This document shows positions 1-19,350 of a DNA stretch of 58,482 nt, in pieces (within the stretch, counting starts at the first letter, position 1; every line of letters begins with the position of its first letter). The position numbers and the translations under genes were made by a program. The notes under the pieces were generated by a model. The model made no database searches, was not told where the DNA came from, and was given only the letters and a program-made list of their open reading frames with translations. Source of the DNA: Macrostomum lignano (lineage: Eukaryota); NCBI GenBank assembly GCA_002269645.1, contig NIVC01003540.1, positions 1-58,482 of the forward strand. The letters run 5' to 3'.

Positions 1-553
1 TCGATCTTTTTTTAATAACGATGTGGTCATCTCCACAACGTCTGAGATGCGTCTTTGTTTCTCTTAGACAAAGCCATGCTGGGATTTCAATAGTATATAC
101 AATCGAATGTGTGTGTAGTGTGTTTAGCGTTTTATTTTTGCTTTTATACAGCCGGCTAGGGTGGAAATGAAAGTTTCCAGAACGTAGTTAGCAAACAAGA
201 ACACACGGTGTACAAGCGGCAGGACCAGATCGCTAAATATGAAAACGAGCTAGCACCCAGACGTCACCCAGACGTCACCCAGACGTTAACTAGCTTCCGA
301 GCGATCGATTCCCTCCACCCGTTTGAAGTCCCTGTACATTTCCTTGGTTGATTGGGGATGTCAAAGCGGAAAGGAAAGCACGCGTGGAACTTGTACATTC
401 GCAAATCGATTAGAGGGCTGCGCTCCCTCAACAAATAGCAGTTACCCCACCCTTTTCAAAATGCACCTGTTGCGTTTGGCTGGCTGAGAATAATAGTTAA
501 GCCCTTCCCGACTCAAGCGCCTCTCTCTACCCCCAGCTCTTTCAGCAGTCTTC

Positions 554-1000
554 CTAGTACCTCGTTTGGAGCGCACAAAATAAACCCAGCTCCCTCTCTC
601 CCCGTGCAACCGCCCTCTCTCCCCAAACACCCACCCTCGCCGTCGATCCCCAACCCAGCTTTTTCTTACCAAAAATAACCGCCTTGACTAATTTCCGAGC
701 AATCGACTCACGAAATCCGCTTGAAGCCCCTATATTGTCTAGTCTCTTAAGCATTTCTTTGTCCCAGCGATTCTTCTCCTCAGGAAAATCTCTATATTTA
801 ACGTCGTGCCACATGCAGACAGAGTCTAGCTCGTTCACAGGCTCATGCCCAGGATTTGGATTATCGTTTGTATCTAACTGTATTTCAAGTGGATTCAAAG
901 GCCCGCAATATTTGTACCCGGGAAGTGTCCAGCCTTTGTTTGGATGAGGAAGCTTTTCTATCAGTCCATGTGAATCTAACTTACCACCAGAGCGTTGCAT
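554..1000 (-). CDS. Parvovirus VP1u-type phospholipase A2 domain protein (PLA2X-like), 148 aa
   Basis: LPGYKYCGPLN matches the Ca-binding loop (YxGPxN) and DSVCMWHDVKY the catalytic helix (DxxxxxHDxxY). Confidence 0.88.
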   Translation of the reverse strand: MQRSGGKLDSHGLIEKLPHPNKGWTLPGYKYCGPLNPLEIQLDTNDNPNPGHEPVNELDSVCMWHDVKYRDFPEEKNRWDKEMLKRLDNIGASSGFRESIARKLVKAVIFGKKKLGWGSTARVGVWGERAVARGERELGLFCALQTRY

Positions 1001-1029
1001 TATTTTATTTTAAATTTTCTTTTAAAAAA

Positions 1030-2061
1030 ATGACAGATCAGAAACTTAAAAAACTCTACTACAGCGACAAAGGATTCTTTGTAGGAAAAATGCAGTCACC
1101 AAACTCGCAGAACTAAGTAAGGAACCAAAAGCTAAAGTAGAAAAGTGGCTCTCTAAGCAGGCTGTCTTTCAAGTCTATTTCCCACCTGTTATATTTACAA
1201 GACCTCACTTTAGCATCTATAAACCTAATGAGGCGCACCAAGCAGACTTATTTTTTCCCCAATGACTCGGGCTACAAGTATGCTCTCACAATTACAGACG
1301 TTGCTTCCAGATATAAGGAAGCTCGCCCACTCAAGACGAAGAAGTCAGAGGTTGTTGCCAGCGCACTCCAAGATATTTATAAAAACTCACCCCTTAGTTA
1401 CCCTGAAATCTTTATGACGGACCCGGGTAAAGAATTCATGGGTGCAGTGAAATCACTTCTACATAAGCATGACACAAAAATTCGCTATGGCAGAACAAAC
1501 TTGCACAGAGACCAGGCTTTTGTGGAAAGATTCAATCTAACTCTAGCCAAGAGGCTATTCACTAAGCAGACAGCTGAGGAGCTGAAACTAAAAAGTGGTC
1601 AGTACTATTCAAAATGGACAGACCGGCTCCCACTGTTATAGAGCAACTGAACAATGAAGTCACACGTATGACTGGATTGAAACCATCCCATGCAATTAAA
1701 CAAGACACTGTCAAACTTAAGGCAACTCATAGAACAGACAACAACACTACAACCCAACAACACACACAACACAAAACACACCTCGAACTACCCTAAGCTT
1801 CCAGGAGTTGAATCACCATACATACTGACAAACTCTGAGTTTCTACGCTTTTTATATCTACCTGGAGAGCTAGAGAAAGACACCAAAAGAAGAGCTACAG
1901 ATCCATACTTCAGCCTTGATGTGCATAAAATAGACAGACATTTTACCTCCGACTCCGGTGATTATTACTTTTTATCTCAAGCCTTTAACCCTAAATCCCC
2001 CACGCGGTCATTCACTAGAGCTGAACTCCTAGTGATACCAGCTGACACAGAAATTAATTAA
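1030..2061 (+). CDS. Retroviral-type (rve, DDE) integrase, split by 4 frameshifts (~1090, ~1255, ~1628, ~1792)
   Basis: Stitched protein contains HQADL, ALTITDVASRY, TDPGKEF and FVERFNLTL, plus the C-terminal LYLPGELE..RRATDPYFS..RSFTRAELL typical of Polinton integrases. Confidence 0.9.
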
Positions 2062-2077
2062 AATATTAAAATAAAAA

Positions 2078-2524
2078 ATGACAAAGATTGAAACCAGAAC
2101 CATCAATAAACTCAATAAAATCATTGAATCAAAGAAACCAGGTATTATATCAATTAAAGGTGCCAAAGTAAAAATCGATCCCACGCAGCAAATACTTCAG
2201 TGTAATGAGCAAAGACACAGCATCACAGATGAAAAGTCAGGAGGAATCCTACCATTAGCAGCTCTTATTCCGATCATTGCAGGCGCTGTAAGTGCCGCAG
2301 GTGGTGTAGCTGGAGGTGTAGCAACTGCTGTTAAAGCTGGTAATGATAGAGCCCACCAGCTGGAATTGCAAAAGATTGCAAGAGATAAAGGTATAACAAT
2401 TAAGGCAGGAGAGGGCTGCCCGGATTTTGATGATTGTGAGCATGAAAATTCTGTAAGCAAGTCTGACATTGTCAAAGCAATCATGACACTACACAATGCT
2501 GGGTTTACAATAATGCGGATGTGA
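2078..2524 (+). CDS. Adenovirus pX/mu-like small virion protein, 148 aa
   Basis: KSGGILPLAALIPIIAGAVSAAGGVAGG resembles adenovirus pX (RGGILPLLIPLIAAAIGA), including the GG cleavage context. Confidence 0.7.
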   Translation: MTKIETRTINKLNKIIESKKPGIISIKGAKVKIDPTQQILQCNEQRHSITDEKSGGILPLAALIPIIAGAVSAAGGVAGGVATAVKAGNDRAHQLELQKIARDKGITIKAGEGCPDFDDCEHENSVSKSDIVKAIMTLHNAGFTIMRM

Positions 2525-2648
2525 TGAGGTTTAAAACCCCACTTTATCCAGCTTCATAAACCTAGCGCTACTTATAGGATGTAGAAACAGTTCAACTTTT
2601 CTATCAGGGTGGTCACCCTCAAAAATTTTGTTTATTTTAGAGAAAAAA

Positions 2649-5600
2649 ATGCCAAAAGCTAATCCAGCAAAAGATTTAGTCAACAAACATTTTGCGTCTC
2701 ATTTACCCTACCCTACAACCTTACAAGGCGTCTCATTTCAAGAAAAAGTAATTACTAAGAGAAGCATGCAAACAAAAGTTCAACACCGACCCTGGTCACC
2801 TGGGAAGCTATGAAAAACAGTTGGAAATCATCAAACAATTAGAATCCAACCAGTATGCGCCTATACAAAATCCTGCAAAGGAACACCAAGAGAGGAGTCG
2901 CAACTTGTTAACAAATATGAAACTCTCACTGGTGAAAAAGCAAAGTACCCACAAAATAAGCAGGAACAAGAGAAATTAGAGCAATTAATCCATTTAAAAG
3001 AGTCGGAGCTTGCCACTGAAGAGATTAATTTTGCACAGAGGAAGTTTACAGAACATTACATAGAGTACACAATCCCAATTAACGGCACCAACGGCACCAC
3101 CGCAAACATCTACGACTATAAAGACAGCATCCAATCAGTTGTTGATCACACACTCAAAACACGCAAGACCTTTAAACTACAGATATCATTCAAGATTGCA
3201 TTTTATATGCCTGCAAAACCCACTGAGCATCTCGAGTATTACATGACAACAAAGGCAAAGCCATTCACCCCTACAGACACACTGGATCCTTTCCTTCAAG
3301 ATGTCACTAAGAAAATTGAAGCGTTTACATCCAGAGGTTCCGGATGGGTCGTAGGAGGGATTCAAAGAGCAACTGTCATGGTCATGAAATATGACCCACT
3401 TAAAGCCTCCTCTTATATAGAGCTCCCGCATAAGCTAGCCGGTAAAAAAGCTTGCATAAATGTTAAAAATAAAGACAATTGCTGTGCTCTATGGGCAGTT
3501 CTTTCTGCACTTCTTCATGATAGTGTCCCTCACCACCCCGAAAGAACCTCAAATTATCAAAATTATTTCAACTACTATCTCATTGAATGCGAAAAGAAGG
3601 GAATCAGGTTTGACAAAGGAGGCTTGGCAATCTCTTAGATCCCAAAGCTAGAAGAAGTGTTTAATAACAAAATTAGAATCACAGTCTTTGAGTGGAGTGA
3701 GAAAACTGAAAAAGTTCAACTGGTCAGATGTAGCAAAGACGTTTTAGATCCTGAGGAAAAAAGGCGGACTGAAGTGGATCTTCTAGTGATTGGTAATTTA
3801 CTAGAGGAGGCTCACTATGTTTGGATTAAAGATCTTTCAAGACTCATTCACAAGCAGTTGAATAATCATCACGAGGCTGTTGCCATCTGCCGCTTGTGCC
3901 TTAAGCATTACAGTGGACCTGAACGCTTTGAAAAGCTAACAGAGCATGAATTATCATGCGAGGATCACCCGACAAACTGCTCTCTTCCTTCAGCTGAAGA
4001 GAAGTATCTCCGGTTTAAGAACTATCACAAGATGGAGAAGCTCCCATTTGTTGTATATGCTGATTTTGAATGCTCAATCATGCCAGAAACTCAAAAACAA
4101 ACTCAAACTCAAAAACATGTCCCCAATTCAGTAGCATATGCCTTTATTAATACAAAAGGACTTGTTGAGTATAATTATTTCTTTGGAGAGCAGTGTGTGG
4201 AGTAGTTTATTGCCAGAATGTTAGAGTTGCAAAGAGTAATTAGCACCCTTCAACCTGTTCCAATAAGTATGTCTGAGGAGGATGAAAGCAATTTCCTATC
4301 AGCAACTCATTGCCACATCTGCAGGAAACATTTAACTTGCACTAATATTAAAAACCCCACCGTTAGGGACCACTGCCACTTTACTGGGAAATTTAGAGGT
4401 GCAGCGCATAACACCTGTAATCTAAAGCTAAAATCGAACATTCATGATCTAACGATATTTTGTCACAACGCAAAGAACTATGACATGCATTTAATAGTTG
4501 AAAAAATCGGCATGATTCCAGACATACACCTTGACTGCATCGCAGAGAACAAGGAGAAGTTTAAGTGTGTTGATATTAAACAGGATAATTCGGGTAAAGG
4601 TGAAGGTTCGGGTACAGGTAAAATAAGACTGAAGGATTCATATCAATTTCTAGCTGCCAGTCTAGACGAACTAAGCAAGAATCTAAAAGATGAACAATGT
4701 ACATATACAAAGATATTTGCAAGTCAAATTAACAACAGTGATGAATCATTTAAACTTTTAAGAAAGAAAGGCTTCTACCCCTATGAAAATATTACTGGGT
4801 ATCATGTTTTGAAGGGACTACCACCACAGGAGAAGTTCTTTTCAAAGCTAACAGACTCTGGAATCTCTGACAAAGACTATGAGCACGCGAAGCATGTCTA
4901 TAATTACTTTAATTGTCAAAACTTCTTCCAGTATCACCTGCTTTACCTCTACACAGATGTGTTTCTGCTGGCTGATGTGTTTGAAACCTTCAGAGACACC
5001 TGGTACACAGCATATGGCCTCGATCCAGCACATTATGCGTCTCTGCCTGCCACTAGCTGGGAATCTTTGCTTAAAATGAAATGGGATCAAGATCCAGATT
5101 GGTACATTGAACTTCTTACAGACATTGACATGTACAATTTTGTCGAATCGTCAAAGCGAGGGGGAATCTCAATTTGCGTTAACAGGTATGCAAAAGCAAA
5201 CAATCCCTACATTGAATCTTACAATAAGGAGCAGCCCTCAAACTACATTACTTACTTGGACGCCAATAATCTCTACGGGTGGGCGATGAGTCAAGATCTT
5301 CCAGTTAGAGATTTTCGATGGCTACCCTCATCAGAATTCAAATGGGACTTTTCATTGGCTGCCATTTATGAGGTTGATGTTTACATTCCACCAGAGCTTC
5401 ACGACTATTTCTCTGACTTTCCACCCTTCCCAGAGAACATTAAGTGCCCGAAAATAATCGAAACTCCCAATGATAATAATGGAACTTGGCACCTGTCAGG
5501 AACAGAAAAAGAACATACAGAGAAACTAACACAGAATCTAAACAACAAGACACGTTACAAAATCCATTACAAACTGCTTCAATATTTTATCTCACTTGGT

Positions 5601-6560
5601 TGCAGGGTCACCAAAGTTCACAGGACTCTTAAATTTACAGAGGAAGCGTGGATGAAACCCTACATTGATAAGAACACCCAGTTTAGGACCAAAGCAACCA
5701 ACGACTTTGACAAGAACCTCTTTAAGTTAGCCAACAACTCCGTCTATGGCAAGACTCTTGAGAATGAGAGGAAAAGAACAAACCTGAAACTTGTTACCTC
5801 ATCAGAGCCTGCTGTTATTCAGGCAAATATGTCAAAGCCAACGTTCAAAGAACTCCATATCTTTAATAGCTACTTAGGTGTGATCATATTTTACAAAACC
5901 AAAGTGACGCTGCGCAAGCCGATCTATACAGGTGTCACTGTTCTCGACGAATCAAAACGTTTGATGTACCAGTTCTTCTATGGCATGAAGCAGCAGTACA
6001 AGGATAAAATGAAACTCTTGTACACTGACACAGACAGTTTTATTATGGACATTCAAACAGAGGACATTTATCAGGACATGCTGCAGCAAAAAGAGTTGTT
6101 TGACTTGTCTGAGTATGACGAATCTTGCAGGACGCTGAATGGTGATCAAGTGTTTGACGCCACTAACAAGAAAGTGATTGGGAAAATGAAGGACGAGATT
6201 GCTGGTGATATAATCACTGAATTCATTGGGTTGAGAGCAAAGTCCTATTTTGTAAAATGTGAGTCGTCAGACCCAATTAAAAAATCAAAGGGAATTCCGA
6301 AACGTGTGGTTAGGAAGGAAATTAATGAAGCTGAATACAGAGACGCCTTGAATTGCAACAAAAAGACATCACATGAGTTCTCAAAGCTACAATCTAAAAA
6401 CCATATTATTCACACAATTCAGCAAAAGAAGATTGGACTGTCAGGTGCAGATAACAAGAGATTCATTTTTGATGACAATATCAACAGTCTACCGTTCGGG
6501 CACTGGAGATTAGGCTTAGGAGATTGGTTTAGGAGGTTGAGGTTGGGTTTAGGAGATTAG
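2649..6560 (+). CDS. Protein-primed family B DNA polymerase with N-terminal terminal-protein region and endonuclease VII-like Zn motif; N-terminal frameshifts and in-frame TAG at 3636 and 4203
   Basis: RGSGW..YDPLKASSYIELP..CINVKNKD; ExoI YADFE; CHIC..RDHCHFTG..HNTCNL; ExoII HNAKNYD; pol motifs YLDANNLYGWAM, KLANNSVYGK and YTDTDS. Confidence 0.95.
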
Positions 6561-6617
6561 GAGATTGGGTTTAGGTTTAAGAGAAAGTTTAATAAACCTC
6601 ATAAAAATAACATAAAA

Positions 6618-7019
6618 ATGACGACAAATAACTTTCTGGAAGATTTGGCTAACGAACTGGAAATCCCAAACTTTAGAGGAATATTTATGAGGGACACTCT
6701 GCCTGATTTTCCTCTAAGAAAGGAATGCGGCATCATGAACTTTGACACCACCGATAAGCCAGGATCTCATTGGGTTTGCTGGGTGATTGATCCCGATCGC
6801 AAGCACAAGTGTTATTACTTCGATAGCTATGGGACGGCAGTACCAGAAGAGCTAAGAAATTATATGAAGGGAAAAAATAATACAAAAATTTACCACTCAG
6901 ACTTTATTCTTCAAGGTCTTAGCAGTGATATTTGCGGTGAGCTGTGCATGACTGTTTTGTATGCAATGACCAAAACACGAAAGACCTACAAGGAAATTAT
7001 TCGTACCTGTGTTTCATAG
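6618..7019 (+). CDS. Adenain-like cysteine protease (virion maturation), 133 aa
   Basis: GSHWVCW (His), YFDSYG (Asp) and QGLSSDICGELC (oxyanion Gln, catalytic Cys). Confidence 0.92.
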   Translation: MTTNNFLEDLANELEIPNFRGIFMRDTLPDFPLRKECGIMNFDTTDKPGSHWVCWVIDPDRKHKCYYFDSYGTAVPEELRNYMKGKNNTKIYHSDFILQGLSSDICGELCMTVLYAMTKTRKTYKEIIRTCVS

Positions 7020-7023
7020 GGGT

Positions 7024-7680
7024 TCATTGTGCATTTCTCGTTGTACTTCTCGTTGTCCTTCTTTCCACATAATGTTGAAGAACTTTCTCGAGTTCATTTC
7101 TCAGCTGACTCATGTCATCAGTACCGACCATGTTCAAGTTCATTCGAATTGATTGTTCATAAAGATCCTGAATGGTTTTGAACTCATCCTCTGAAATGAA
7201 CTTATCCTCGATTGCCCTTGAAATGTACCCTATGATTGATGTGTGCACCCCTTTCTCTTTTACTTGCTTCTCCTGTAGCTGCTTTAGTTTTTTTCGCCTG
7301 TTTCGCGCTACTGCTCCAGTAATTGCTGAAATAAGTCCACATGCAGCACCCACAGAGCCGAGTGGGATTGCGATTGGGGCTGTGATGACTGGCAACACTG
7401 AGACAGCTGCAGCAGATCCAGATAGAACAGACACAGATCCTAGAATCATATTGCTGTAGTCGAAAAATTTACAGTGGCTGTCATAGCGCTTAATTTTCTT
7501 TGTGTTGTGGAAAATATTTTTTTCAAGATCATCGCGCATTTTTTGAATCTCCACTAGTCGAAACTGTTGAGAGTTACAAGTAATGACGGGGTAGAGTTTT
7601 TGTTGCTCATATTGGGGTGCACTAGGTGCACTAGGTGTTGTGGGAGCGTTCGGATCATAAAGAGAATTTTGAGCATCCAT
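7024..7680 (-). CDS. Putative membrane-active virion protein (resembles the Polinton 'GasderminX' type), 218 aa
   Basis: N-terminal PSAPSAP and LYP motifs, FRLVEI, a long Gly/Ala hydrophobic hairpin followed by a basic stretch, and ISRAIEDKFISEDEF. Confidence 0.65.
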   Translation of the reverse strand: MDAQNSLYDPNAPTTPSAPSAPQYEQQKLYPVITCNSQQFRLVEIQKMRDDLEKNIFHNTKKIKRYDSHCKFFDYSNMILGSVSVLSGSAAAVSVLPVITAPIAIPLGSVGAACGLISAITGAVARNRRKKLKQLQEKQVKEKGVHTSIIGYISRAIEDKFISEDEFKTIQDLYEQSIRMNLNMVGTDDMSQLRNELEKVLQHYVERRTTRSTTRNAQ

Positions 7681-7790
7681 TTTTTAGGGAATTTTTTAAA
7701 AAAAATCGGCAACTATAGTTGGTGGTGGTTAGATTTGTTTTACGGTTGATTGCTTCGTCTGCAGTGACGGCAACAGGTCTCTGAATCTGC

Positions 7791-8533
7791 CTATTCATTA
7801 TCTGTGAGCTCCATTCTACGCATGATCTCAAACAAGTCGGTTGGATCACTTGTTTCCCTTGTGGTCTGTGGTGCCTCTTCAGCGTCAATGTTTTTGAGAT
7901 TATGCAAGCGTTCAAGACGACCGATTCTTCTCACCGATTTCTGCCATTCGTAAAAACTAAATCTACAAAGACTTTATTTGCAGTAATTCTTACTTTGATT
8001 TGATCATGCAACGCTGTTGACTGAGTCATGAACTCTTCTAAATTCCTCACTTTACCTGTGTTGGTTGCGACGTTTTCTTTAATTCTATCATGCAACGCTG
8101 TTGACTGGTTCATGAACTCTTCTAAATTATTCACTTTAGCTGTGTTTGTGAAAACTCCTTCTTCAAGAATGCGCATCCGCCTATCAATGGAGTTTCTCAG
8201 AAGATTAATTGTCGATGCTAAATTTGTTCTTAAACCGTTGATTTGCGAGACTGCCGAAGTTATTTCTGACCTTAGTTCATTAGTTGCGTGTACAACCTGT
8301 ACATAAAGCTTATCACTTTCAAACTTCTGCCTGGCTACTTTTATGCGGAGATCTTCTATGTTTATCTGTAGCTGGTGCATGGAGCGCTCTAATTGTTTCA
8401 GTCTGTTTTTATTCAGTTTGATCTCTGGGATCTTTTCGTCGCTGTTGATATATCGCCTGTCAAGTATGGATATTTGAGCTGATGTAAGAGCGCTGTTGCC
8501 AGAAATGGATTCACCTGCAAAGTTTATTGACAT
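7791..8533 (-). CDS. Coiled-coil protein with an internal 28-aa duplication; probable frameshift at ~7955 extends it to a stop at 7791
   Basis: 200-aa ORF with heptad character and the repeat TNT(A/G)KVxNLEEFMxQSTALHD. Adding one base in the A5 run at 7952-7956 continues it as YEWQKSVRRIGRLERL... Confidence 0.6.
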
Positions 8534-8549
8534 CTTTTAATAGCAAATT

Positions 8550-9349
8550 TTAAATTACAGTTCTTTTTTCTTTGCTGATAATCACAAACTGGTAAGGCTG
8601 ATTCCACTTGTCATAGCAAAGATTAACGAATTCCTCTTGTGAAATCTTTCTGCTTGAGTTTTTTGTTGGATTTATGAAATAGGCAGGCGCAATGACCTCA
8701 TTGTAAAATCTTTTTAACCTGTCCTGTGGAATGGTTGGAAACAGGAGAATCAGATTGCAGTTCCCGCGAATTGTTTTGTTCGGGAGCTCGAACCAGTTCT
8801 GTGCAATGTAAATTACATTACAATTGTTATGTCGTCCTCTTGTAAAATAGTTTTCTATCTGCTTCTGTGGGCCTGTCATACAATCATCAAAGACGATCAA
8901 ATGCTTTCTCCCCTTTTCTAGCTCATCTGGTTGGGGTAGAAGTTTGTTCTTTGGATCAGCCTGTGGATCTCCATAGGTGAACACTTTAATGTTCTGCCAT
9001 TTTTCATTGTCTTTGAGGTGCTTTGAATATTCAGCAGCTACAATTTCTGGGTTACTGGGAAGGCTCATTTGGTTATTAAAACATGCAATAATGTCCTCTT
9101 TGTTCAGCTTGTTTTGAAACCCTGCAATCAACATTCTATACTCATCTTGATACAGTGTGGGAGAGTAGATGTGCAGAGTGTCATAGTCGATAAAGCCAGG
9201 TCTAAGAAGCATGTTAAAGACTCTGAATGTTTACCTGAACCTGATGAACCAACAACAATGCATCTGAAATGACTCGGAATTGACTCGTGATGAGAAAACT
9301 TAATCTGATTACGCGTCCAGTGAGGATTGAAGTCGTTTGAAAAGTCCAT
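8550..9349 (-). CDS. A32/FtsK-like genome packaging ATPase (frameshift at ~9230)
   Basis: Walker A VVGSSGSGK(T), Walker B LIVFDD, and TRGRHNNCNVIYIAQ motif. Confidence 0.92.
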
Positions 9350-9387
9350 TTTTTCTATGAAAAAAATTAAATAATAAATCATTTAGA

Positions 9388-9595
9388 TGTGTCATTTCGG
9401 GACTTGAATGTGTCGTTTTGGGACTTAGATGTGTCATTTTGGGACTTGGATGTGTTATTTTGGGACTTAGATGTGTCATTTTGGGACTTAGATGTGTCAT
9501 TTTGGGACTTAGATGTGCCATTTTGGGACTTAGATGTGTCATTTTGGGACTTAAATGTGTCATTTTGGGACTTAGATGTGTCATTTCGGGACTAG
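9388..9595. repeat. 21-bp tandem array (~10 copies) inside the Polinton, upstream of the ATPase gene
   Basis: Unit GGACTTAGATGTGTCATTTTG; translates as THLSPKM repeats. Confidence 0.92.
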
Positions 9596-9618
9596 TCTTG
9601 TACCCTCGGAAAGTACCT

Positions 9619-10008
9619 TTAGTCAAATTTGAAACCACTTCCTTTTTTAATGCTTGCTCTCATCTTCTCATAGACTGCAGGGTCCACACTGTCTGGATTT
9701 GGGGCCAGCGGGGCCAGCGGGGCCAGTGGAGGTTGAATCTCTTGTTTAGGTGTTACAGTATCCTTTATCTTTTTGGCTGCTGTGGCTACACTGCCAGCCG
9801 CTTCGGCAACGTTCTTGATGTTCTCTTTGTTCTCTCCAATGACCTTAAAAATCTTAGCCCCCTGAGCGATCAAATCAGCAAGGCCATTCCCAGAGCGTTC
9901 TTTTCTTGGATAGTGGCCTGCAGGGAAAAGTCCAGATCCGCGTTTAATGAGATTAAGTTCCTCTTTGTCATAGTATTTGTCAATGTCTTTTTCGAAAATA
10001 AGAGGCAT
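9619..10008 (-). CDS. Small core-like virion protein (129 aa, MPLIFEKD...KKGSGFKFD)
   Basis: AAAAATG start at 10008 inside the 411-aa ORF; three GxG motifs (KRGSG, RSGNG, KKGSG). Confidence 0.55.
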   Translation of the reverse strand: MPLIFEKDIDKYYDKEELNLIKRGSGLFPAGHYPRKERSGNGLADLIAQGAKIFKVIGENKENIKNVAEAAGSVATAAKKIKDTVTPKQEIQPPLAPLAPLAPNPDSVDPAVYEKMRASIKKGSGFKFD

Positions 10009-10024
10009 TTTTACTTGAAATAAA

Positions 10025-11135
10025 TTATTTTTTGTTGAACCGCGAAAGCAGAAGCTCTCTCGCCTCTTATCGATGTATTTTCTCTCAAGCATTTTGTCCA
10101 GGATGTTGACAAATTCTTTTCTATTTTCATCTTTCATTCCGGTCTTTGCCGCTCCTAGAAGAACCGCTACTCGCTTGTAGAATTCAGGCATGCCTTTTCC
10201 GGAAGAGCTTGGAGGTGATTCGAATGATTGGTCAGAGGAGGAACTGTCATGTGGCGCTTGTCTTTGTTGAGGTGTGAATACTCTGTCATTGATTCGCTTC
10301 ATTCGTTCTGGGGAGAGCCGCTCTAATTGTCGCCAAGTATCAGGGTTCGTATCTTTGTACTGCGAAACAACAATCGGTTCTGCGGCGTCAAGTTGATCAA
10401 GTACTTGTTCAACCTGGGTTTTTTGTTGCTGTGGAGGTGGTGGTTGCTGTGGTTGCTGCTGTTGTTGTGGTTGCTGCTGTTGTTGTCTTATGACCTCTTC
10501 TTGATCTGGCAAACCAAACCATTGTTTAAAGTATTTGTATTTTCTAAACCTGTTCAAGTCAATCCTGTTTTCATGTAAAACTTTCAAAACACCGTTGTTC
10601 TTGAGCATATCTATATCCCTCTCTAAAGCGAAGGTAACAAGATCTTTGTAATTTTCGAACTGCTTTTTAGACGTTTTCTCTAGATTTTTAGTCATGTAGT
10701 CGAGTAAACTTTGAGTGAAGGGGATTCGTTTAGTTTCTGCGCCTTTATTGATTAAAATATTTTCCTTTGTCACTTCAATGTTGTAATCCGCCGGTTCCCC
10801 GGTAATATTTTTTCGCCAGGCGCTAATTCCAAAAATATATTTTCCATCATCCAATACGGGACCAAAAAGTTATCCGTCACTTTCATCTGCACTGGTTGTC
10901 CTGGTTCCTGAGCCTGTGGTTGTCCCGGTGAAGATGGGATTTTACCCAATGTGTTTTGCAAGTGGCTCTCTTGAATATCATCAACTGCTTCCTTCACAGT
11001 GTCGAGGTTTTTCTTCGCTTCTGTGTATCCGGGTTTGTGAAATTCGGTGGCTGCTTGGACAAACTCATTGTAGGATTGTTGCTCCTTATTTATTAGCCCG
11101 GTAACTCGTTTCTCTGCTTGTGCTAGCTTCTCCAA
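10025..11135 (-). CDS. Polinton conserved uncharacterised protein with Q/P-rich linker (frameshifts at ~10866 and ~10068; start uncertain)
   Basis: Repair gives DNFFGPVLDDGKYIFG and C-terminal RVAVLLGAAKTG..EFVNILDKMLE, ending at TAA 10025-10027. Confidence 0.55.
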
Positions 11136-11198
11136 TTCAGATATCTGCTGTGTACTTTTTCGCTTCGTTTCTTATTTTATTTTATTTTTAGTTAAAAA

Positions 11199-12493
11199 AT
11201 GAACGACCCACTGACACCAGTTTTCTACAAAATTAACAAGCCTATTTTGAGTGATGATAGCACAATCAAAGCGACTCAGGTAAGAGTTCCCAGTCAGGAA
11301 AATCAGAATGAAACTAATCTTGGTCCTGGCCAAACACTGACATTTACATACAATGGATGTTCGTCTTTGGTCAGTGTCCACAGTCTAAGGAGCGGCTTCT
11401 ATATGACGTTTCAATTCAAAACTAAAGGAGGCGCAGACGCCGCTCATGCTAATGATGATCTACACAATGCGGATGTCGCACTAACCAGTAATTTCTGGGC
11501 TTATATGTTCAAAGAGTTTAATGTGTCCAATGGAAGTACAGAGTTGGAAAGAATAGCAAACTTTGGTGTGGTCTATGATACCCAGTGCTTGATTGAGAAC
11601 CCGGATTTTATTCAGATGGGGAGCGGTGCTGGATTCATCCCCAATGAACAGACAGGAGATGAGAATGACCCTGGTTACAAAAAGAGAAAGGAGAGATACA
11701 ACTATGCTCTTGCTGGTGAGAACGATGCTGCTAAGAATCCGCTGTTTAGGTCTGTAGATATTTTTGTACCTTTGAGGTTTATGAGTGGTTTCTGTAATAG
11801 TTTCAATCGGTTGACAAGCAACTTTAGCTACACATTTAGACTGACTAGAGATGATCGGAACAGAGGAATTTGGTCGGGGCCAATCATACATCGATGGAGA
11901 TTAAGCTAACTAGCGTGGAGCTGTACTTAGAAATTATTGAGCCCAAGACTGCACTCAAAGCTGAATACTTGAAGGCGATTGAGAAAGACATTGATGTTGC
12001 TTATACAGCTTATATGTGCAGAGATGAGCGGAATGACGCAAGACACAATATTTGCATTAAAGAAGGCTCCTGTAGCAATCCAAGGTACATTATTGTCACT
12101 ATGAGGAATACAACTAATGTAGGTAGATATCTACATGGAAACATTCGATCGATTCAGCATGAGATCAGTGACAATTTATACCCTGCATTGCCACAAAATG
12201 GGAATTTCTCGGAGAACAAGATTAGTAAGTTTTACAATGAACTGTCGGACTTGGCTGTCAAAGAGAATAACGGTATTGTTTTGACAACCTTGCAGTATAA
12301 AAAACTATATCCAATATTTGGTGTTGATGTGACTGCTAGACAAATGCCTACAGACAATAGCCCTGTTAACATTGTGACTAATATCGAGCGGAAAGAATTT
12401 GGTGCCGCAACGGCTGTTGATCTGTTTATTATCTATGCATTTGAGAGGAAGATCAAGGTCAATATGATCAATAACTCGTCTAGTAAAGTTTGA
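11199..12493 (+). CDS. Double jelly-roll major capsid protein (frameshift at ~11870)
   Basis: ~430 aa when joined; PRYIIV, LYPALP..FSEN..SKFYNEL, YKKLYPIFGVDVTARQ; directly upstream of the penton. Confidence 0.85.
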
Positions 12494-12515
12494 ATAATTT
12501 TTTTTCAATAAAAAA

Positions 12516-13373
12516 ATGGAAGCCATAGCCGAAAGACTGAACAACATTGTTTCACACTCTAAGGAGAGCATTCCAATCACTGTAGCGGGTCGCATTACTG
12601 AGTCAAACGGAATCTTCATTCAAAAATTGGAGCAACCACTTCGTTTGGATCCCGAGGCGAATTACCACGTCTATCTCAATGATTTCACTGGGTGGTCAAA
12701 TGTTCCCAATGTGACAGCGGAAAATAACAAGTTTTATTACAAATGGAAGCGTACTACAACAGAGGTTGTGATATTTCCTGTCAGCACACAGAGCGTGGAT
12801 ACTTATAATTACTTCTTGGAGAACGTCTTCACTAAACGAAAGCATTTTGAGATACCGGATGAAAGCAAACCAGAAAATAAACTGTTCCCTGTTAGATTAA
12901 CTTATGATCTAACTGTCATGAGAGTTGTCTTGCAAGTTCATAAGGACGCAGAGGTAGAGTTTAAAGATGGCACTTGGTATCGCGAGTTGGGATTTGAAAA
13001 GAGAGTTTATGGTGGCGCCACAGACCAAAGCCCGCTGCAGGCGCCTGGCACTGTTGCTGTGTCCCGGCTAATATCCGGTATGTACTTGGCGCCAAATATC
13101 GCTGACATTGTCAAAGGTTTGAATATATTAATTCGCAGCAATCTGAGCCATGATTGGATATTCAAGGGCAAACGAACCAACATACTTTTTAACATTTCAA
13201 ACTCTGTTGCTGGTGGCAAAATGCTTGTGCAAAAGCCAAACCCCGTGAAAAGAGTGATTCTGAGTAATAGAGAGATACATGAAATCATTCTGCAGTTTGA
13301 AACAGAGGATGGCGTTGGTGTCGATTTTAACGGGGAAGAGTTTGTGCTAACAATTATTATTGAGAGAATGTGA
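12516..13373 (+). CDS. Minor capsid protein (penton), 285 aa
   Basis: PLRLD...L.DF.G.S.VPNVTAENNKFYY; IRSNL; C-terminal EIILQFETEDG..VDFNGE. Confidence 0.85.
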   Translation: MEAIAERLNNIVSHSKESIPITVAGRITESNGIFIQKLEQPLRLDPEANYHVYLNDFTGWSNVPNVTAENNKFYYKWKRTTTEVVIFPVSTQSVDTYNYFLENVFTKRKHFEIPDESKPENKLFPVRLTYDLTVMRVVLQVHKDAEVEFKDGTWYRELGFEKRVYGGATDQSPLQAPGTVAVSRLISGMYLAPNIADIVKGLNILIRSNLSHDWIFKGKRTNILFNISNSVAGGKMLVQKPNPVKRVILSNREIHEIILQFETEDGVGVDFNGEEFVLTIIIERM

Positions 13374-13434
13374 GTCGTCTTCAGACTTGTAAAATTACGA
13401 TATAAGCCGCCAGGTACAACCGTGTAGTTGGCTA

Positions 13435-13671
13435 CTACAACTGCCTTATAACTTCAGCAAAGTTATAATAGCTGTCAAAATTGTTAATGACTACTCCGTG
13501 TTTTTCAAACCAGTGAGATTTAAGTGCTTGATTAATATTAGGGACATTGATATCAACGCCGGGCCAATATTTTCTCATGTACTCGCTGCATTCTAGTTTG
13601 CATTGGTACTTACTCTTGTAATTAGGCTCGTGCGCTTTGTAATAAGAACCTGGGGAGACAACTGGAAACAT
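13435..13671 (-). CDS. Small orphan ORF next to the terminal repeat, 78 aa
   Basis: AAAAATG start as in the other element genes; no recognisable motif. Confidence 0.4.
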   Translation of the reverse strand: MFPVVSPGSYYKAHEPNYKSKYQCKLECSEYMRKYWPGVDINVPNINQALKSHWFEKHGVVINNFDSYYNFAEVIRQL

Positions 13672-13828
13672 TTTTAGAGAAAATTTAGATTTTTTTTCAA
13701 AGGGTAAGGACCCTGGGTTAGGGGATTTAAAGTCTTAGGGATCTGGTAGCACGTTGCGGATTGAATGTGGGGAGAAGAATGCAGATTATTTTCTGATTGT
13801 TTCGAAGATGCTATGGGTGGATTTGGAG

Positions 13829-14137
13829 CTGTTATGCTCAGAGCATAAACCCTCAGAGCATAACAGTAGGACACCTGTTATGCTCTGATTCTGTCAGGGA
13901 TAATATGGATGGATTTAATGGGATTATGGAGGATGTTTTGTGAGCGAGTGCGACCCCCTTTTTTCTGATTCTGTCGGGGATAATATGGATGGATTTAATG
14001 GGATTATGGAGGACGTTTTGTTAGCGAGTGCGACCCCCCTTTTTTTCTGATTCTGTCAGGGATAATATAGATGGATTTAATGGGATTATGGAGGACGTGA
14101 AAAATTTTGTCCCAAAAGCCCCCTCATGCCTTCTACT
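13829..14137. repeat. Right terminal (TIR) region of the Polinton: 14-bp hairpin plus ~80-bp subterminal repeats (x2.6)
   Basis: TCAGAGCATAACAG (13853) and CTGTTATGCTCTGA (13875) are inverted. CTGATTCTGTC(A/G)GGGATAATAT... recurs at 13885, 13965 and 14047. Ends in CTACT. Confidence 0.75.
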
Positions 14138-15462
14138 TGGCTTTGAGCTGGGGTGAGTTGCCTTGTGGCTTTGAGCTGGGGTGAGTTGCCTTGTGGCTTT
14201 GAGCTGGGGTGAGTTGCCTTGTGGCTTTGAGCTGGGGTGAGTTGCCTTGTGGCTTTGAGCTGGGGTGAGTTGCCTTGTGGCTTTGAGCTGGGGTGAGTTG
14301 CCTTGTGGCTTTGAGCTGGGGTGAGTTGCCTTGTGGCTTTGAGCTGGGGTGAGTTGCCTTGTGGCTTTGAGCTGGGGTGAGTTGCCTTGTGGCTTTGAGC
14401 TGGGGTGAGTTTCCTTGTGGCTTTGAGCTGGGGTGAGTTGCCTTGTGGCTTTGAGCTGGGGTGAGTTGCCTTGTGGCTTTGAGCTGGGGTGAGTTTCCTT
14501 GTGGCTTTGAGCTGGGGTGAGTTGCCTTGTGGCTTTGAGCTGGGGTGAGTTGCCTTGTGGCTTTGAGCTGGGGTGAGTTGCCTTGTGGCTTTGAGCTGGG
14601 GTGAGTTGCCTAGCGGCTTTGAGCTGGGGTGAGTTGCCTTGTGGCTTTGAGCTGGGGTGAGTTGCCTTGTGGCTTTGAGCTGGGGTGAGTTGCCTTGTGG
14701 CTTTGAGCTGGGGTGAGTTGCCTTGTGGCTTTGAGCTGGGGTGAGTTGCCTTGTGGCTTTGAGCTGGGGTGAGTTGCCTTGTGGCTTTGAGCTGGGGTGA
14801 GTTTCCTTGTGGCTTTGAGCTGGGGTGAGTTTCCTTGTGGCTTTGAGCTGGGGTGAGTTTCCTTGTGGCTTTGAGCTGGGGTGAGTTGCCTTGTGGCTTT
14901 GAGCTGGGGTGAGTTGCCTTGTGGCTTTGAGCTGGGGTGAGTTGCCTTGTGGCTTTGAGCTGGGGTGAGTTGCCTTGTGGCTTTGAGCTGGGGTGAGTTG
15001 CCTTGTGGCTTTGAGCTGGGGTGAGTTGCCTTGTGGCTTTGAGCTGGGGTGAGTTGCCTTGTGGCTTTGAGCTGGGGTGAGTTGCCTTGTGGCTTTGAGC
15101 TGGGGTGAGTTGCCTTGTGGCTCCGAGCTGGGGTGAGTTGCCTTGTGGCTTTGAGCTGGGGTGAGTTTCCTTGTGGCTTTGAGCTGGGGTGAGTTGCCTT
15201 GTGGCTTTGAGCTGGGGTGAGTTGCCTTGTGGCTTTGAGCTGGGGTGAGTTTCCTTGTGGCTTTGAGCTGGGGTGAGTTGCCTTGTGGCTTTGAGCTGGG
15301 GTGAGTTGCCTTGTGGCTCCGAGCTGGGGTGAGTTGCCTTGTGGCTTTGAGCTGGGGTGAGTTTCCTTGTGGCTTTGAGCTGAGTTGCCTTGGCTTTGAG
15401 CTGGGGTGAGTTGCCTTGAGCTGGGGTGAGTTGCCTTGTGGCTCCGAGCTGGGGTGAGTTGC
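14138..15462 (+). repeat. 28-bp minisatellite (~47 copies) containing GGG|GTGAGT donor motifs
   Basis: Unit TGGCTTTGAGCTGGGGTGAGTTGCCTTG. Confidence 0.97.
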
Positions 15463-15666
15463 ATAGCGGCTTGTTCTTCTAAAAAGTTAGAGGCAGAGCA
15501 GTGAGACTTCTGGAGAGGCTGTGAATTCCTGAACAAGCAGTGAGATTCTTGATGGCCGGGGTAGATCGTCTTGCAGAGGTCTACGAAGGTGAGACTTCTC
15601 AAAGACGCCCAGCTGTCATCATCAGGTGCTGCATTCACACAAAGCTGACCCAACTGAACTCCGCAG

Positions 15667-16959
15667 CCCCTCCGGGATGAACTCCAGAAGAGCTGGATGG
15701 ATCTGCTGAATCCCAAAGGCAGCCCGCTTTACTTCTGGTGAGTCGCCTGCTGATGAAGTCAAATTCCAGTCTCACTAGATCTCCATCCAGTCTCACTAGA
15801 TCTCCATCCAGTCTCCCTAGATCTCCATCCAGTCTCACTAGATCTCCACCCAGTCTCACTAGATCTCGACCCAGTCTCCCTAGATCTCCATCCAGTCTCA
15901 CTAGATCTCCACCCAGTCTCCCTAGATTTCCATCCAGTCTCACTAGATTTCCATCCAGTCTCACTAGATTTCCATCCAGTCTTCCTAGATCTCCACCCAG
16001 TCTCACTAGATCTCATCCGAGCCTCACTCCTCAAATCTAGGCGTGAAGAGTTCAAGAAGCACGGCTCTTGCGTGGCAACTGATCCCAGGTTCAACACAAC
16101 TTTTTTGTACTTTAAAGCAGCGCTTCAGCTTAACCAAAAGTACAACCTGAGCGAGTGAGTTCAGCTGCAATGGCTTTCGCCGTGATTTAATAAGCAGTTC
16201 ATCACCTGCACCATCTCTGATAAACTTCAGAATGTTGCAAAAGGGGGCGTGACGCCCAGCTCAACCCCTATTGATGTACGTTTGGCCTCGCGGCTGTGAA
16301 CTGATTATGTGGCTCCTTTTATGACTATTACGAGCTAATGCTAGCTAAGAAATTCTGAACTGTCAACTCGCACCTCTGACACCCCCAGGCATCCAAGATT
16401 CGCAGCGCGCTGCAGAGCGCCTTCGGCTTCAAGCCCATGGTCCGCTGCGCCAAGACGGTGAGATCATACTCACCCCACTCCGACACCCACCCCACTCCGA
16501 CACCCACCCCACTCCGACACCCACCCCACTCCGTCACCCACCTCACTCCGACACCCAACCCACTCCGACACCCACCTCACTCCGACACCCACCCCACTCC
16601 GTCACCCACCCCACTCCGACACCCACCCCACTCCGACACCCACCCCACTCCGACACCCACCCCACTCCGACACCCACCCCACTCTATTACCAAACAACTT
16701 GCAGAATGGCCAGACATTTCTGTACGAGCTGCGCCTGTGCTTCGCCAAAGACCTGAGCCCGAATGATTGCAATGAGGAGCCTCAGCCTGCCCGCCCCTTC
16801 ACGGTGTGGGGTGTGCTGGAGAAGACGGCGGCCCAGCTGCACCAGATGCTGTTCGGCTGGTCGACCCCGGGGTCGGTGTGGCTGCCGCGCCGCTCGAACG
16901 GGACCTACGAGTGCGGCGACGGCGAGCTGGTGCTGCTGCCGGACGCCGCTCAACGATGA
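15667..16959 (+). CDS. RNASET2: Ribonuclease T2 family, 3' exons: 15667-15737, 16041-16154, 16231-16275 (1 nt short), 16389-16457, 16705-16959
   Basis: Spliced product LRDELQKSWMDL..FWREEFKKHGSC (CAS II)..YFKAALQL..KYN..IRSALQSAFGFKPMVRC..LYELRLCFAKDL; GT-AG boundaries at each exon. CAS I exon not found. Confidence 0.8.
15767..16030. repeat. 21-bp intronic minisatellite
   Basis: Unit CCAGTCTCACTAGATCTCCAT. Confidence 0.92.
16470..16684. repeat. 17-bp intronic minisatellite
   Basis: Unit CCGACACCCACCCCACT. Confidence 0.9.
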
Positions 16960-17479: not shown

Positions 17480-19350
17480 TTAAGTTGCCGCCCGCTTGCC
17501 GTACTGCAGCGGCGGGAAGTTGACGCGGAAGCTGACGTGGGAGGCGCACAGGGTGGTCAGCAGCTCCAGCAGCTCGGCCAGCGAGATCACGGAGGACCCC
17601 ATCCAGAGGCCGAGGATGCCGCCGAGATGTGACAGCAGGTCCACGGTGGAGTAGCTGCGCTCCTCCGCGATGTACACCACGCTGAGGCTGAACGGGTACA
17701 CCTGCACCCTTAAGAAGTGCCTGGAGATGAACTTCTGCACCTGCAGGCAGTGCGACTCGTTCGCGAACCTCCTGCTGCTGTCCATGCGGGTGCAGTCGCC
17801 GGGCCGCAGCCGCCGGGCCCGCACGGCTCTCACCACAGCGGGCAGGCGGGCATCGGGCAGGCTGGAGTTGGCGAACTGCTTCAGGTACGAGTCCAGGATG
17901 CCCGAGAAGGTCTGGAAGATCAGCCTGGCGTCGTAACGGCCGTGCAGGTGGCTGGCGGAGTCGGGCAGCTCGGAAGTGAAGATCTGAAACTGGTAGCTCG
18001 ATGAGGAGCACTGGTCCTCTGCGTGCTCAGCCTCCTGCACCAGCTGCTCGGCCAGTCTCAGGTGGCAGCGCAGCGACTCCCAGTTGCTCCACAGGTCCGG
18101 CATGTTGAGCCTGACGAGCTCCCTGCAGGCTGAGAAGTTCGCCGCCTTGAGCAGCCCATCGCACAGGTCGCTGATTCTCCGCTGGAATCTTCGGAAGCCG
18201 CCGCTCTGAGCGTCGAAGAGGTCGGCGCAGTGCCGGCTCGGCCTCAGGTGCGTCGGCAGGCCGACGGGGCCGGTGGGGAGGCAGCCGCACCTGGCCTGCA
18301 CCTGCGCCGCCTCCTGCCACTCCAGCCGGTCCGCCAGGCTGGTCTTGTAGGTCCTCACCGTGGGCACCAGCGGGTCCCGAACGGAGAACTCCGAGGCCTC
18401 CTCGCACGGTCTTTGCGGCGTGTTGAGCAGCTGAGTTCGCACCTCCCGGAGCCCGATCTTCGTCTCGTGGCTGGTGGCAGCCATGATGGAGTCCTCGCTC
18501 ACCCTCGGCATCGAGTCGGGCTCGTGCGCCGTCACCAGCACCCCGTTCGTCTCCAGACCCGTATCCGTTGAGCCGTCCAGCATCGCCGGGTCGCTCCAGT
18601 TGCGGAAGTGCGGGTCGGAGGCTGGCGAGTACATGATGAGGCTCAGGCCATCGTGCGGCCTCTCCTGGCTGCCCTCGGGGCGGAAGGTGAAGCAGTTGCC
18701 GTACTGCCGGTGGTAAAAGGCCGAGAACTGCGAGGGCTGGCACAGCGAGCCGCAGAACTTGCACTGGATCAGCAGGTCCTGCACGGACAGCCCCAGGGCG
18801 GTGGCGTTTCCAAGAAAGTGCAGCCCCGGCACCGACTTGGGCAGCTCGAAGACGCCGTGCGAGAGCGTCAGGAAGCTGCTGAGGTCCGGGATTCGCTTCA
18901 GCGCGTCGGGGTAGCCCGCCCTGAAGAAGCGCATCTGCCAGGCCTCGCACACGGTCACGCTGGGGAATCTGAAGTCGTTGAGGATCTCCCGCGTTGAGGA
19001 CTGCAGTGGGAACTTGTAGTACTCAGACACTGCTGGAACACGTGCAGGCCCAGGCAGCTCAGCATCACGGCCAGGACCGCCGCCCACGCGACGCCGCAGG
19101 GCGTTGAGCCCACGTGCCACAGGCCGTGGATTGCCGCGGTGTCCAGGAACTTCGCCACCGTCCGCCTGCGATGGCGGGACAACGCCAGCTGGCGGCACTT
19201 GGCGCCACCAACGACGGAGGCTGGCGCGGCTGGGGCGCGGGACGGCCTCGTGGATGCGTGGACCGCCGCCGACTCCTCCCGCAGCACCCACACAGGCGGC
19301 TCCTCCAGCGGGATCTGCACCGCTCGCTGCGACTCCGAGCAGTCGGCCAT
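17480..19350 (-). CDS. DEG/ENaC (ASIC/FaNaC-like) sodium channel, single exon, frameshift at ~19030
   Basis: Pre-TM1 FLDTAAIHG, TM1, YYKFP..FPSVTVC, YGNCFTF, Cys-rich thumb, and TM2 LLSHLGGILGLWMGSSVISLAE. Confidence 0.9.

Follow-up and report, generated by a model that had tools for sequence, protein, structure and literature searches.

Conserved glycine sites with a basic P4 residue as probable substrates of an adenain-like protease in a Polinton of Macrostomum lignano

The closest described systems are the clan CE proteases that mature virus particles. Adenain (Peptidase_C5) cuts its substrates at two forms of site, xGG|x and xGx|G, with M, I or L and sometimes N or Q at P4 (PMC4246237). 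MVP, the capsid-maturation protease of mavirus, a related integrating virus, cuts at GG|X and GX|G. Of the four sites mapped for it, two carry Lys at P4, the fragments obtained in vitro ending K-K-G-G at residues 580 and 592 (PMC6048507, Table S1). Among the genes of adintoviruses and Polintons are PLA2X, GasderminX and Cupiennin, and the virion accessory genes described there comprise PLA2, pX-like domains and an amphipathic protein resembling cupiennin (PMC8502044; bioRxiv 697771), while LO6 of adomaviruses is apparently cleaved in virions, its motifs being given as (MIL)-type (bioRxiv 341131). What we say of these and the other cited papers holds for the passages of them available to us. 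Here we analyse a stretch of 58,482 nucleotides from Macrostomum lignano (contig NIVC01003540.1, the window), which carries at ~370-14100 an element that is by its gene content a Polinton/Maverick integrated in an animal genome. Sequence comparison, together with the analogy to the systems above, leads us to propose that the element's protease probably cuts three of its proteins, a pX-like core protein, a protein of 129 residues and a phospholipase A2 (PLA2)-like protein, at conserved sites after assembly and with a preference for a basic P4. It would cut at (K/R)-x-G-G|x and (K/R)-x-G-x|G, where adenain uses Met, Leu or Ile. That the element's protease cleaves these sites at all, P4 preference or not, we consider very likely.

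The protease is an intact adenain/Ulp1-like (clan CE) cysteine protease of 133 residues encoded on the forward strand at 6618-7019. Its key residues are His51 (codon at 6768), Asp69 (6822), Gln99 (6912) and Cys106 (6933), which in an alignment of 103 rows are kept in 103, 95, 98 and 102 rows, respectively, and Met24 (6687), to which we return below. The AF2 model has a pLDDT of 95.7; Foldseek finds adenain (1nln) as its best match with E 4e-9, and VIA superposition on adenain residues 2-152 gives Z 14.4 and an rmsd of 2.3 Å over 130 residues. The score against the Pfam family Peptidase_C5 (PF00770) is 20.9 bits, for a cut-off of 21.3. The fold, the His-acid-Cys triad and the oxyanion Gln are thus common to both enzymes, and the first-pass annotation was right to take this gene for the element's protease. 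The differences lie elsewhere: Glu71 of adenain is Asp here, the C-terminal region 153-204 is absent, and so is the insertion that carries Cys104, without which no disulfide with a pVIc cofactor can be formed. We take Leu201, in the missing C-terminal region, to line the S4 pocket of adenain. Our literature search for residues lining that pocket returned only a list of docking contacts, in which Leu201 is a hydrophobic ligand contact (PMC11224336). Alignment places residue 24 of the window protease close to residues 26-28 of adenain, a segment packed against the loop that leads up to His54, and we infer that residue 24 lines S4.

The seven (K/R)-x-G-x-G or (K/R)-x-G-G sites that the first-pass annotation had listed in the three small proteins are all present, and they are enriched over shuffled sequence. 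The three proteins hold nine GG/GxG motifs, with R, K, K, A, V, K, K, R and K at P4; that is, K or R in 7/9, compared with 3/17 in the other 12 open reading frames (ORFs), and they contain no adenain-type (M/L/I) site. In a plain shuffle the seven motifs compare with a mean of 1.03, and 0/20000 shuffles reached as many. Because the motif and the proteins had been chosen together, we also left both choices to chance, taking in each shuffle whichever of nine P4 classes and whichever 3 of 14 ORFs scored best, which raised the mean to 3.3; seven was then reached in 1/5000, and with the long polymerase ORF added eight motifs were observed and 0/3000 shuffles did as well. The possibility that the pattern is a product of chance picked after the fact draws on that joint choice, on the weak conservation of two of the seven sites and on one of them being half a frameshift product. 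It is nevertheless barely credible, given the corrected shuffle, conservation in homologues that are 29-83% identical and replication in independent loci; for five of the seven sites conservation already refutes it. A fixed P4 and fixed glycines with free P3 and P1 are what would be expected of a protease site, and these sites are likely to be real maturation sites.

The first candidate substrate is the pX (mu)-like core protein of 148 residues (2078-2524, forward strand), which matches the Pfam family Adeno_PX (PF05829) with 30.2 bits (cut-off 25) and E 4e-7, and whose profile matches PDB 9lr9_E at RGGFLPL with E 0.012. The candidate site KSGG|ILPL (2234-2245, forward strand) aligns with LRGG|IFP and MRGG|FFP in two adenovirus contigs, where L-R-G-G and M-R-G-G fit the adenain consensus (PMC4246237). 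The claim that KSGG sits where adenovirus pX is cut is thereby borne out. The two systems have both site forms in common and a homologous substrate in which the position of the site agrees, while P4 is M/L/I (or N/Q) for adenain and K/R here, outside the adenain substrate consensus. The site is followed by a hydrophobic segment of 20 residues. It reads K/R-x-G-G in 17/17 outside homologues (29-65% identity), with T, S, E or N at P3. A second candidate in the same protein, KAGEG (2402-2416, forward strand), is weakly conserved.

The 129-residue protein (9619-10008, reverse strand) has no family match and carries three candidate sites. KRGSG (9931-9945) is found in 13/14 homologues with K or R at P4; RSGNG (9883-9897) has Arg at P4 in 14/14, with N, D, E or A at P1; and KKGSG (9634-9648) is kept in 12/14, five of which have an extra K-x-G-x-G just upstream. 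The 14 homologues include two UniRef entries labelled Macrostomum lignano, which are not independent. RSGNG directly precedes a predicted amphipathic helix, residues 42-59 (9832-9885), which would become the new N-terminus after a cut at RSGN; its hydrophobic moment of 0.49 is equalled in 10/2000 shuffles, the homologous helices have moments of 0.39-0.62 (0-90 of 2000 shuffles), and the helix is also present in a low-confidence model of the protein (pLDDT 56). A cut at KKGS|G would free the five residues G-F-K-[F/Y/H]-D, a tail kept in 12/14 homologues; the C-terminus of a second family is K-G-G-K|G-L-K-K-F, and at the analogous tail site the adenovirus controls have M-T-G-S|G. The layout of a leader, an amphipathic helix after a site and a short Gly-led C-terminal peptide is that of adenovirus pVI, although the tail here has only five residues and lacks the Cys of the pVI peptide. 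Searches of Pfam and the PDB with the protein gave no match to pVI or any other family, only coiled-coil noise, and therefore the protein at most works like pVI; likewise 'cupiennin-like' would be an analogy, with no database match behind it. The gene itself is separate in 7/7 sister copies in which the start was found (10 sister pairs were examined), with a stop 27-42 codons upstream, and its start has the A-rich context of the element's other starts. Only in the window is it fused to an upstream frame (9619-10695), and the upstream stops in all seven sisters rule out that ORF of 358 residues as a native gene.

The third candidate substrate is a parvovirus-type PLA2-like protein (554-1000, reverse strand; PF08398, E 7e-14), which in this element has a gene of its own, apart from pX. 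Its presence among the candidate substrates sets the window element apart from adenoviruses. The frame is broken near 655-660 in this copy, so that the tail is read out of frame, and the break falls inside the candidate site KLGWG (647-661, reverse strand) at the end of the PLA2 domain. The motif is there as the first-pass annotation had it, but partly out of frame: KLGLG is the reading of all eight sister rows in which the site is covered in frame, WGWG being an off-frame reading of the sisters only, and 9/9 outside PLA2 homologues have K/R-LGLG. The other candidate, RSGG before the domain (983-994, reverse strand), is family-restricted, with 28/33 own-genome rows that cover the N-terminus carrying it, some of these rows being one locus twice. 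Conservation of the motif therefore holds for five of the seven sites and fails for KAGEG and RSGG. Beyond these sites, the sister tails (L049, L069, L073 and L063), to which 560-650 of the window corresponds on the reverse strand in another frame, have a short tandem repeat after KLGLG; it gives several R-E-G-G motifs and an R-x-G-x-G ahead of a conserved F-I-L segment, all of them extra basic-P4 candidates of variable number. In many marine elements (L184-L229, for example L184:588-1871 and L222:980-2284) the PLA2 is the N-terminal part of an ORF of 400-445 residues that directly follows the protease and has K/R-L-G-[L/W]-G at the domain end.

Could these be uncut glycine hinges, with a structural or functional role as helix C-caps or starts of membrane peptides? 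The last PLA2 helix terminates in KLGLG, and a predicted helix in KKGSG, as such hinges might. We nevertheless regard this explanation as improbable. KSGG has its homologue in an adenovirus pX site that conforms to the adenain consensus; three unrelated folds share one pattern, which is also duplicated in linkers and found at natural fusion junctions; and P4 switches together with the protease lineage. The fusions join the protease to PLA2, pX or integrase (P0053, P0054, P0077, P0167, P0048, P0092, P0072, P0115 and L201) and carry GG/GxG motifs at domain junctions, as in P0053, P0054 and P0048, which suggests a polyprotein-like self-release.

The switch of P4 with lineage was followed in 33 protease clusters at 70% identity (74 loci), of which 30 had a pX-core call; residue 24 of a few cluster rows was read from the protease alignment. 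Among clusters with Met24 ('F-M-R-D'), the window included, P4 of the pX site is K or R in 13/16, compared with 0/14 in the others, which have Q, I or T, or L/M in the adenoviruses, and include three doubtful calls. The PLA2 end site has K/R at P4 in 10/11 Met24 protease clusters. Met24 is over-sampled here because the metagenome loci (80 kept of 524) were fetched with a pattern containing F-M-R-D, which does not select P4. On a protease tree of 33 rows the P4 label changes 8 times as against 15.4 when shuffled. For this tree 10/43 rows had been dropped beforehand, four because of a doubtful pX call and six because the protease was fragmentary; the backbone is weak and kin share labels, so this is clustering and not proof of co-evolution. 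A basic P4 is thus, as far as these sequences go, a trait of a wide Polinton lineage, and the proteases of the several lineages likely differ in what their S4 pockets prefer, be it K/R, H, Q or I/T. The idea that a basic P4 would be peculiar to this element falls with this result, and MVP cutting after K-K-G-G already shows that it is not unprecedented.

The same can be seen in positional scans blind to P4. Two adenovirus controls have M/L/I at P4 in 30/66 GG motifs (11.2 expected) and 18/44 GxG motifs (7.5 expected), Gln families of the window's own genome have Q in 12/83 (4.0 expected) and 7/48 (2.3 expected), respectively, and 25 dereplicated Met24 metagenome loci have K/R in 24/83 GG motifs (12.6 expected), with 10, 11 and 18 basic residues at P6, P5 and P3. 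The window genome holds at least three further Polinton groups (L083/L084 and L277/L278; L279/L280, L263/L264, L273/L274, L093/L094 and L085/L086; L265/L266, L269 and L281). In one of them the pX gene holds two cores in tandem, K-D-G-G and K-Q-G-G, and there are many GxG sites; the others have Q-H/R/N/V-G-G at the pX site, together with Q-x-G-x-G in PLA2 and small proteins. When viral contigs were scanned, neither the window protease nor the PLA2 alignment picked up a relative; a Gln-type protease gave two weak loci. Separately, the viral contigs L143, L119, L112, L117, L118 and L107-L109 encode Phe/Tyr24 proteases and show an adenain-like enrichment of Met/Ile at P4.

These lineages also bear on whether another enzyme could make the cuts, such as the viral ovarian-tumour-type (vOTU) domain of the polymerase, host SENP or deubiquitinases, or basic-site proteases. 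GG ends resemble the C-termini of ubiquitin-like proteins. Polinton polymerases do carry a probably active vOTU protease, but the role proposed for it is release of the terminal protein in cis (PMC11161782), and adenain and the mavirus protease are both documented to use the x-G-x|G form (PMC4246237, PMC6048507). Since K-type and Q-type families coexist in one host genome, P4 goes with the protease of the element rather than with the host, and we hold the involvement of another enzyme to be very unlikely.

More is to be said for the possibility that the element's protease does cut these sites but reads only GG/GxG, the Lys and Arg being kept by basic regions (for DNA binding or nuclear import) and by descent. 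Several of the following observations weigh against a basic P4 preference, and some against the proposal as a whole. MVP cut not only its Lys sites but also V-Y-G-Y at 567 (PMC6048507, Table S1) and site 516, for which we read Val at P4 from a primer in Table S5, and tolerance may therefore be broad; P4 is not discussed in the passages of that paper available to us. KAGEG has a basic P4 in 5 of the 17 outside pX homologues, N, V and N in three, and no motif in the aligned window in nine; RSGG is found in 0/9 of the nearest outside PLA2 homologues; and H and A also stand at P4 of some homologous sites, the Met24 clusters with a non-basic pX site having H in two cases and a doubtful I in one. 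In the Met24 metagenome loci the GxG motifs have basic residues at P6, P5, P4 and P3 alike (27, 27, 23 and 20 of 93, 14.1 expected), that is, in a generally basic context. A second K-type family in the window genome shows no whole-proteome K/R enrichment (3/13 and 3/20) and has mixed P4 at its GxG sites. On the enzyme side, the comparison of proteases revealed no K-specific acidic residue: the acidic S4 pocket that had been expected of K-type enzymes is not supported as specific to them, as Asp26 and Asp43, absent from adenain and common to K-type and Q-type Polinton proteases, are found in the H and I types too. The two residues might favour a polar P4, but they do not amount to a Lys-specific pocket. 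Finally, the window copy is itself decayed, with integrase, polymerase, ATPase, capsid and PLA2 tail all broken.

What speaks for a role of P4 is its position in the site. In four sister stretches, which are not independent, the residue is basic at P4 in 15 and at P5 in 0 of 27 GxG motifs, and in the outside pX homologues P5 is often Glu, yet P4 is K/R throughout. The several sites of one element share one P4 class, which is Q in the Gln-type families, and MVP left two GxG motifs uncut (PMC6048507). Indifference to P4 thus appears unlikely to us. Nonetheless, a strict basic rule is doubtful because of the N and V at the second pX site in three homologues, the even spread of basic residues from P6 to P3 around GxG and the mixed P4 of the second K family. 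Of the specificity proposed in the first-pass annotation, what remains, on the strength of the enrichment, the five conserved sites and the lineage pattern, is that Lys/Arg at P4 is likely to be preferred or tolerated rather than demonstrably required. The Lys P4 demonstrated for the related mavirus enzyme supports this mechanism and at the same time lowers its novelty.

A more speculative reading, to which we give a low probability, would join two of these observations: a lineage-specific P4 code (K/R, H, Q, I/T or M/L) set largely by residue 24, the residue after the first strand, and the conserved tail G-F-K-[F/Y/H]-D of the 129-residue protein as a minimal, disulfide-free forerunner of the pVIc activator. 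In such a code Met would stand for the window type, Ser/Pro for the Gln types, Leu/Val for the Ile/Thr types and Phe for the Met/Ile types. In the tree rows Met goes with K/R/H in 19/19, Leu/Val with I/T in 3/3 and Ser/Pro with Q in 9/9, a match that rests on about three independent events, and two fusions are consistent with it, P0077 (Ser24, QEGG) and P0092 (Ala24, QEGKG). As the sole determinant of P4, residue 24 is weakened by two others, P0072 (Ser24, KEGG) and P0115 (Met24, LSGDG), and by Ser24 viral loci that are enriched in K (38/180 GxG motifs, 23.9 expected).

We return to the proposal that the element's protease matures its own virion proteins with a preference for a basic P4, and model its course after adenovirus and mavirus. 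After assembly, pX would be cut at KSGG, freeing its hydrophobic segment. The 129-residue protein would be cut so as to expose its amphipathic, probably membrane-active helix and release the five-residue tail, as in pVI, and the PLA2 domain would be detached from its tail and freed for entry. Together the three cuts would prime the particle for the breach of a membrane on entry. All three candidate substrates are probably virion-internal, small core or membrane-active proteins, in contrast to MVP, whose substrate is the C-terminal domain of the major capsid protein (PMC6048507). The capsid protein and the probable penton of the window family are likely not substrates: neither has a basic-P4 motif in the window or in any listed sister ORF. 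The system would work like adenain maturation but is not adenain, either by substrate consensus or by the cofactor cysteine.

The rest of the element supports its assignment. The gene set of rve integrase, A32-like ATPase, double jelly-roll capsid protein and cysteine protease is present, with the ATPase and capsid family scores taken on sister copies, and ~370-14100 has many matches elsewhere in its own genome, so the element is multi-copy; the protease by itself is matched at least 150 times, with identities of 86-100%, among the 150 candidates scored out of 731. Intact in the window copy are the protease, pX and the 129-residue gene. The integrase (1228-2061, forward strand; PF00665, matched also by a sister ORF of 345 residues) is in pieces. 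The polymerase ORF (3207-6560, forward strand), with in-frame stops, belongs to the protein-primed family B polymerases as judged from motifs and context, and its N-terminal piece presumably includes a vOTU domain. It holds three further basic-P4 motifs, absent from the first-pass list; its repeat-derived end (6500-6560, forward strand) has R-L-G-L-G twice, at least one basic-P4 motif is found in this tail in 26/28 own-genome rows, and it is possibly a site or a repeat by-product. On the reverse strand, the A32-like packaging ATPase (8550-9382), split by a frameshift, corresponds to a sister ORF matching PF04665, and the proteins at 7024-7680, with a hydrophobic hairpin, and 7931-8533, a coiled coil, have no GG/GxG motif. 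On the forward strand, the ORF at 11199-12493 corresponds to a sister ORF of 431 residues that matches PF21738, while a PDB search with the capsid protein gave no match; it is followed by the probable penton, or minor capsid protein (12516-13373), assigned by position and size only. The Pfam scan gave no polymerase or penton match, although long ORFs sit in the expected places. Terminal inverted repeats and a 6-bp target duplication were not found in window positions 1-16000 or in 9/10 sister pairs, the remaining pair offering as a terminal-repeat candidate a match of 100 nucleotides at 82%; the termini may have been lost or may fall beyond the stretches examined. A 21-bp tandem repeat at 9380-9600, between the ATPase and the 129-residue gene, is found in the sisters too, and a tandem-repeat block lies at 14020-16800, beyond which the host ORFs at 17480-19350 (reverse strand) resemble what we take to be a DEG/ENaC-type channel gene. 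Contigs of four possibly-RNA runs cover 29-30/30 bins and give no evidence of expression.

In the literature that we searched, no substrates of a Polinton protease are stated and no Polinton cleavage motifs were found, a search whose scope left aside subscription journals and bioRxiv supplements (annotated adintovirus maps), which could mention them. PMC8502044 has 0 occurrences of the string 'cleav' in its main text, bioRxiv 697771 has 0 of 'cleavage', and the passages available of PMC8097293, PMC11161782 and bioRxiv 2025.02.07.637071, 2026.10.13.758929 and 2024.03.25.586562 contain no such motif. The surprise is nevertheless moderate, because a maturation scheme was to be expected and Lys at P4 was already visible in the mavirus data. 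What the conserved sites add is that they name concrete substrates and peptides, with which the question of whether Polintons mature their particles like adenoviruses becomes testable. The lineage-specific P4 offers a natural series for the change of specificity in viral clan CE proteases, across virophages, Polintons and adenoviruses, and supplies a rule by which virion proteins can be recognised where Polinton genes lack annotation. If the P4 code were true, the Polinton families that share one host genome would mature only their own particles.

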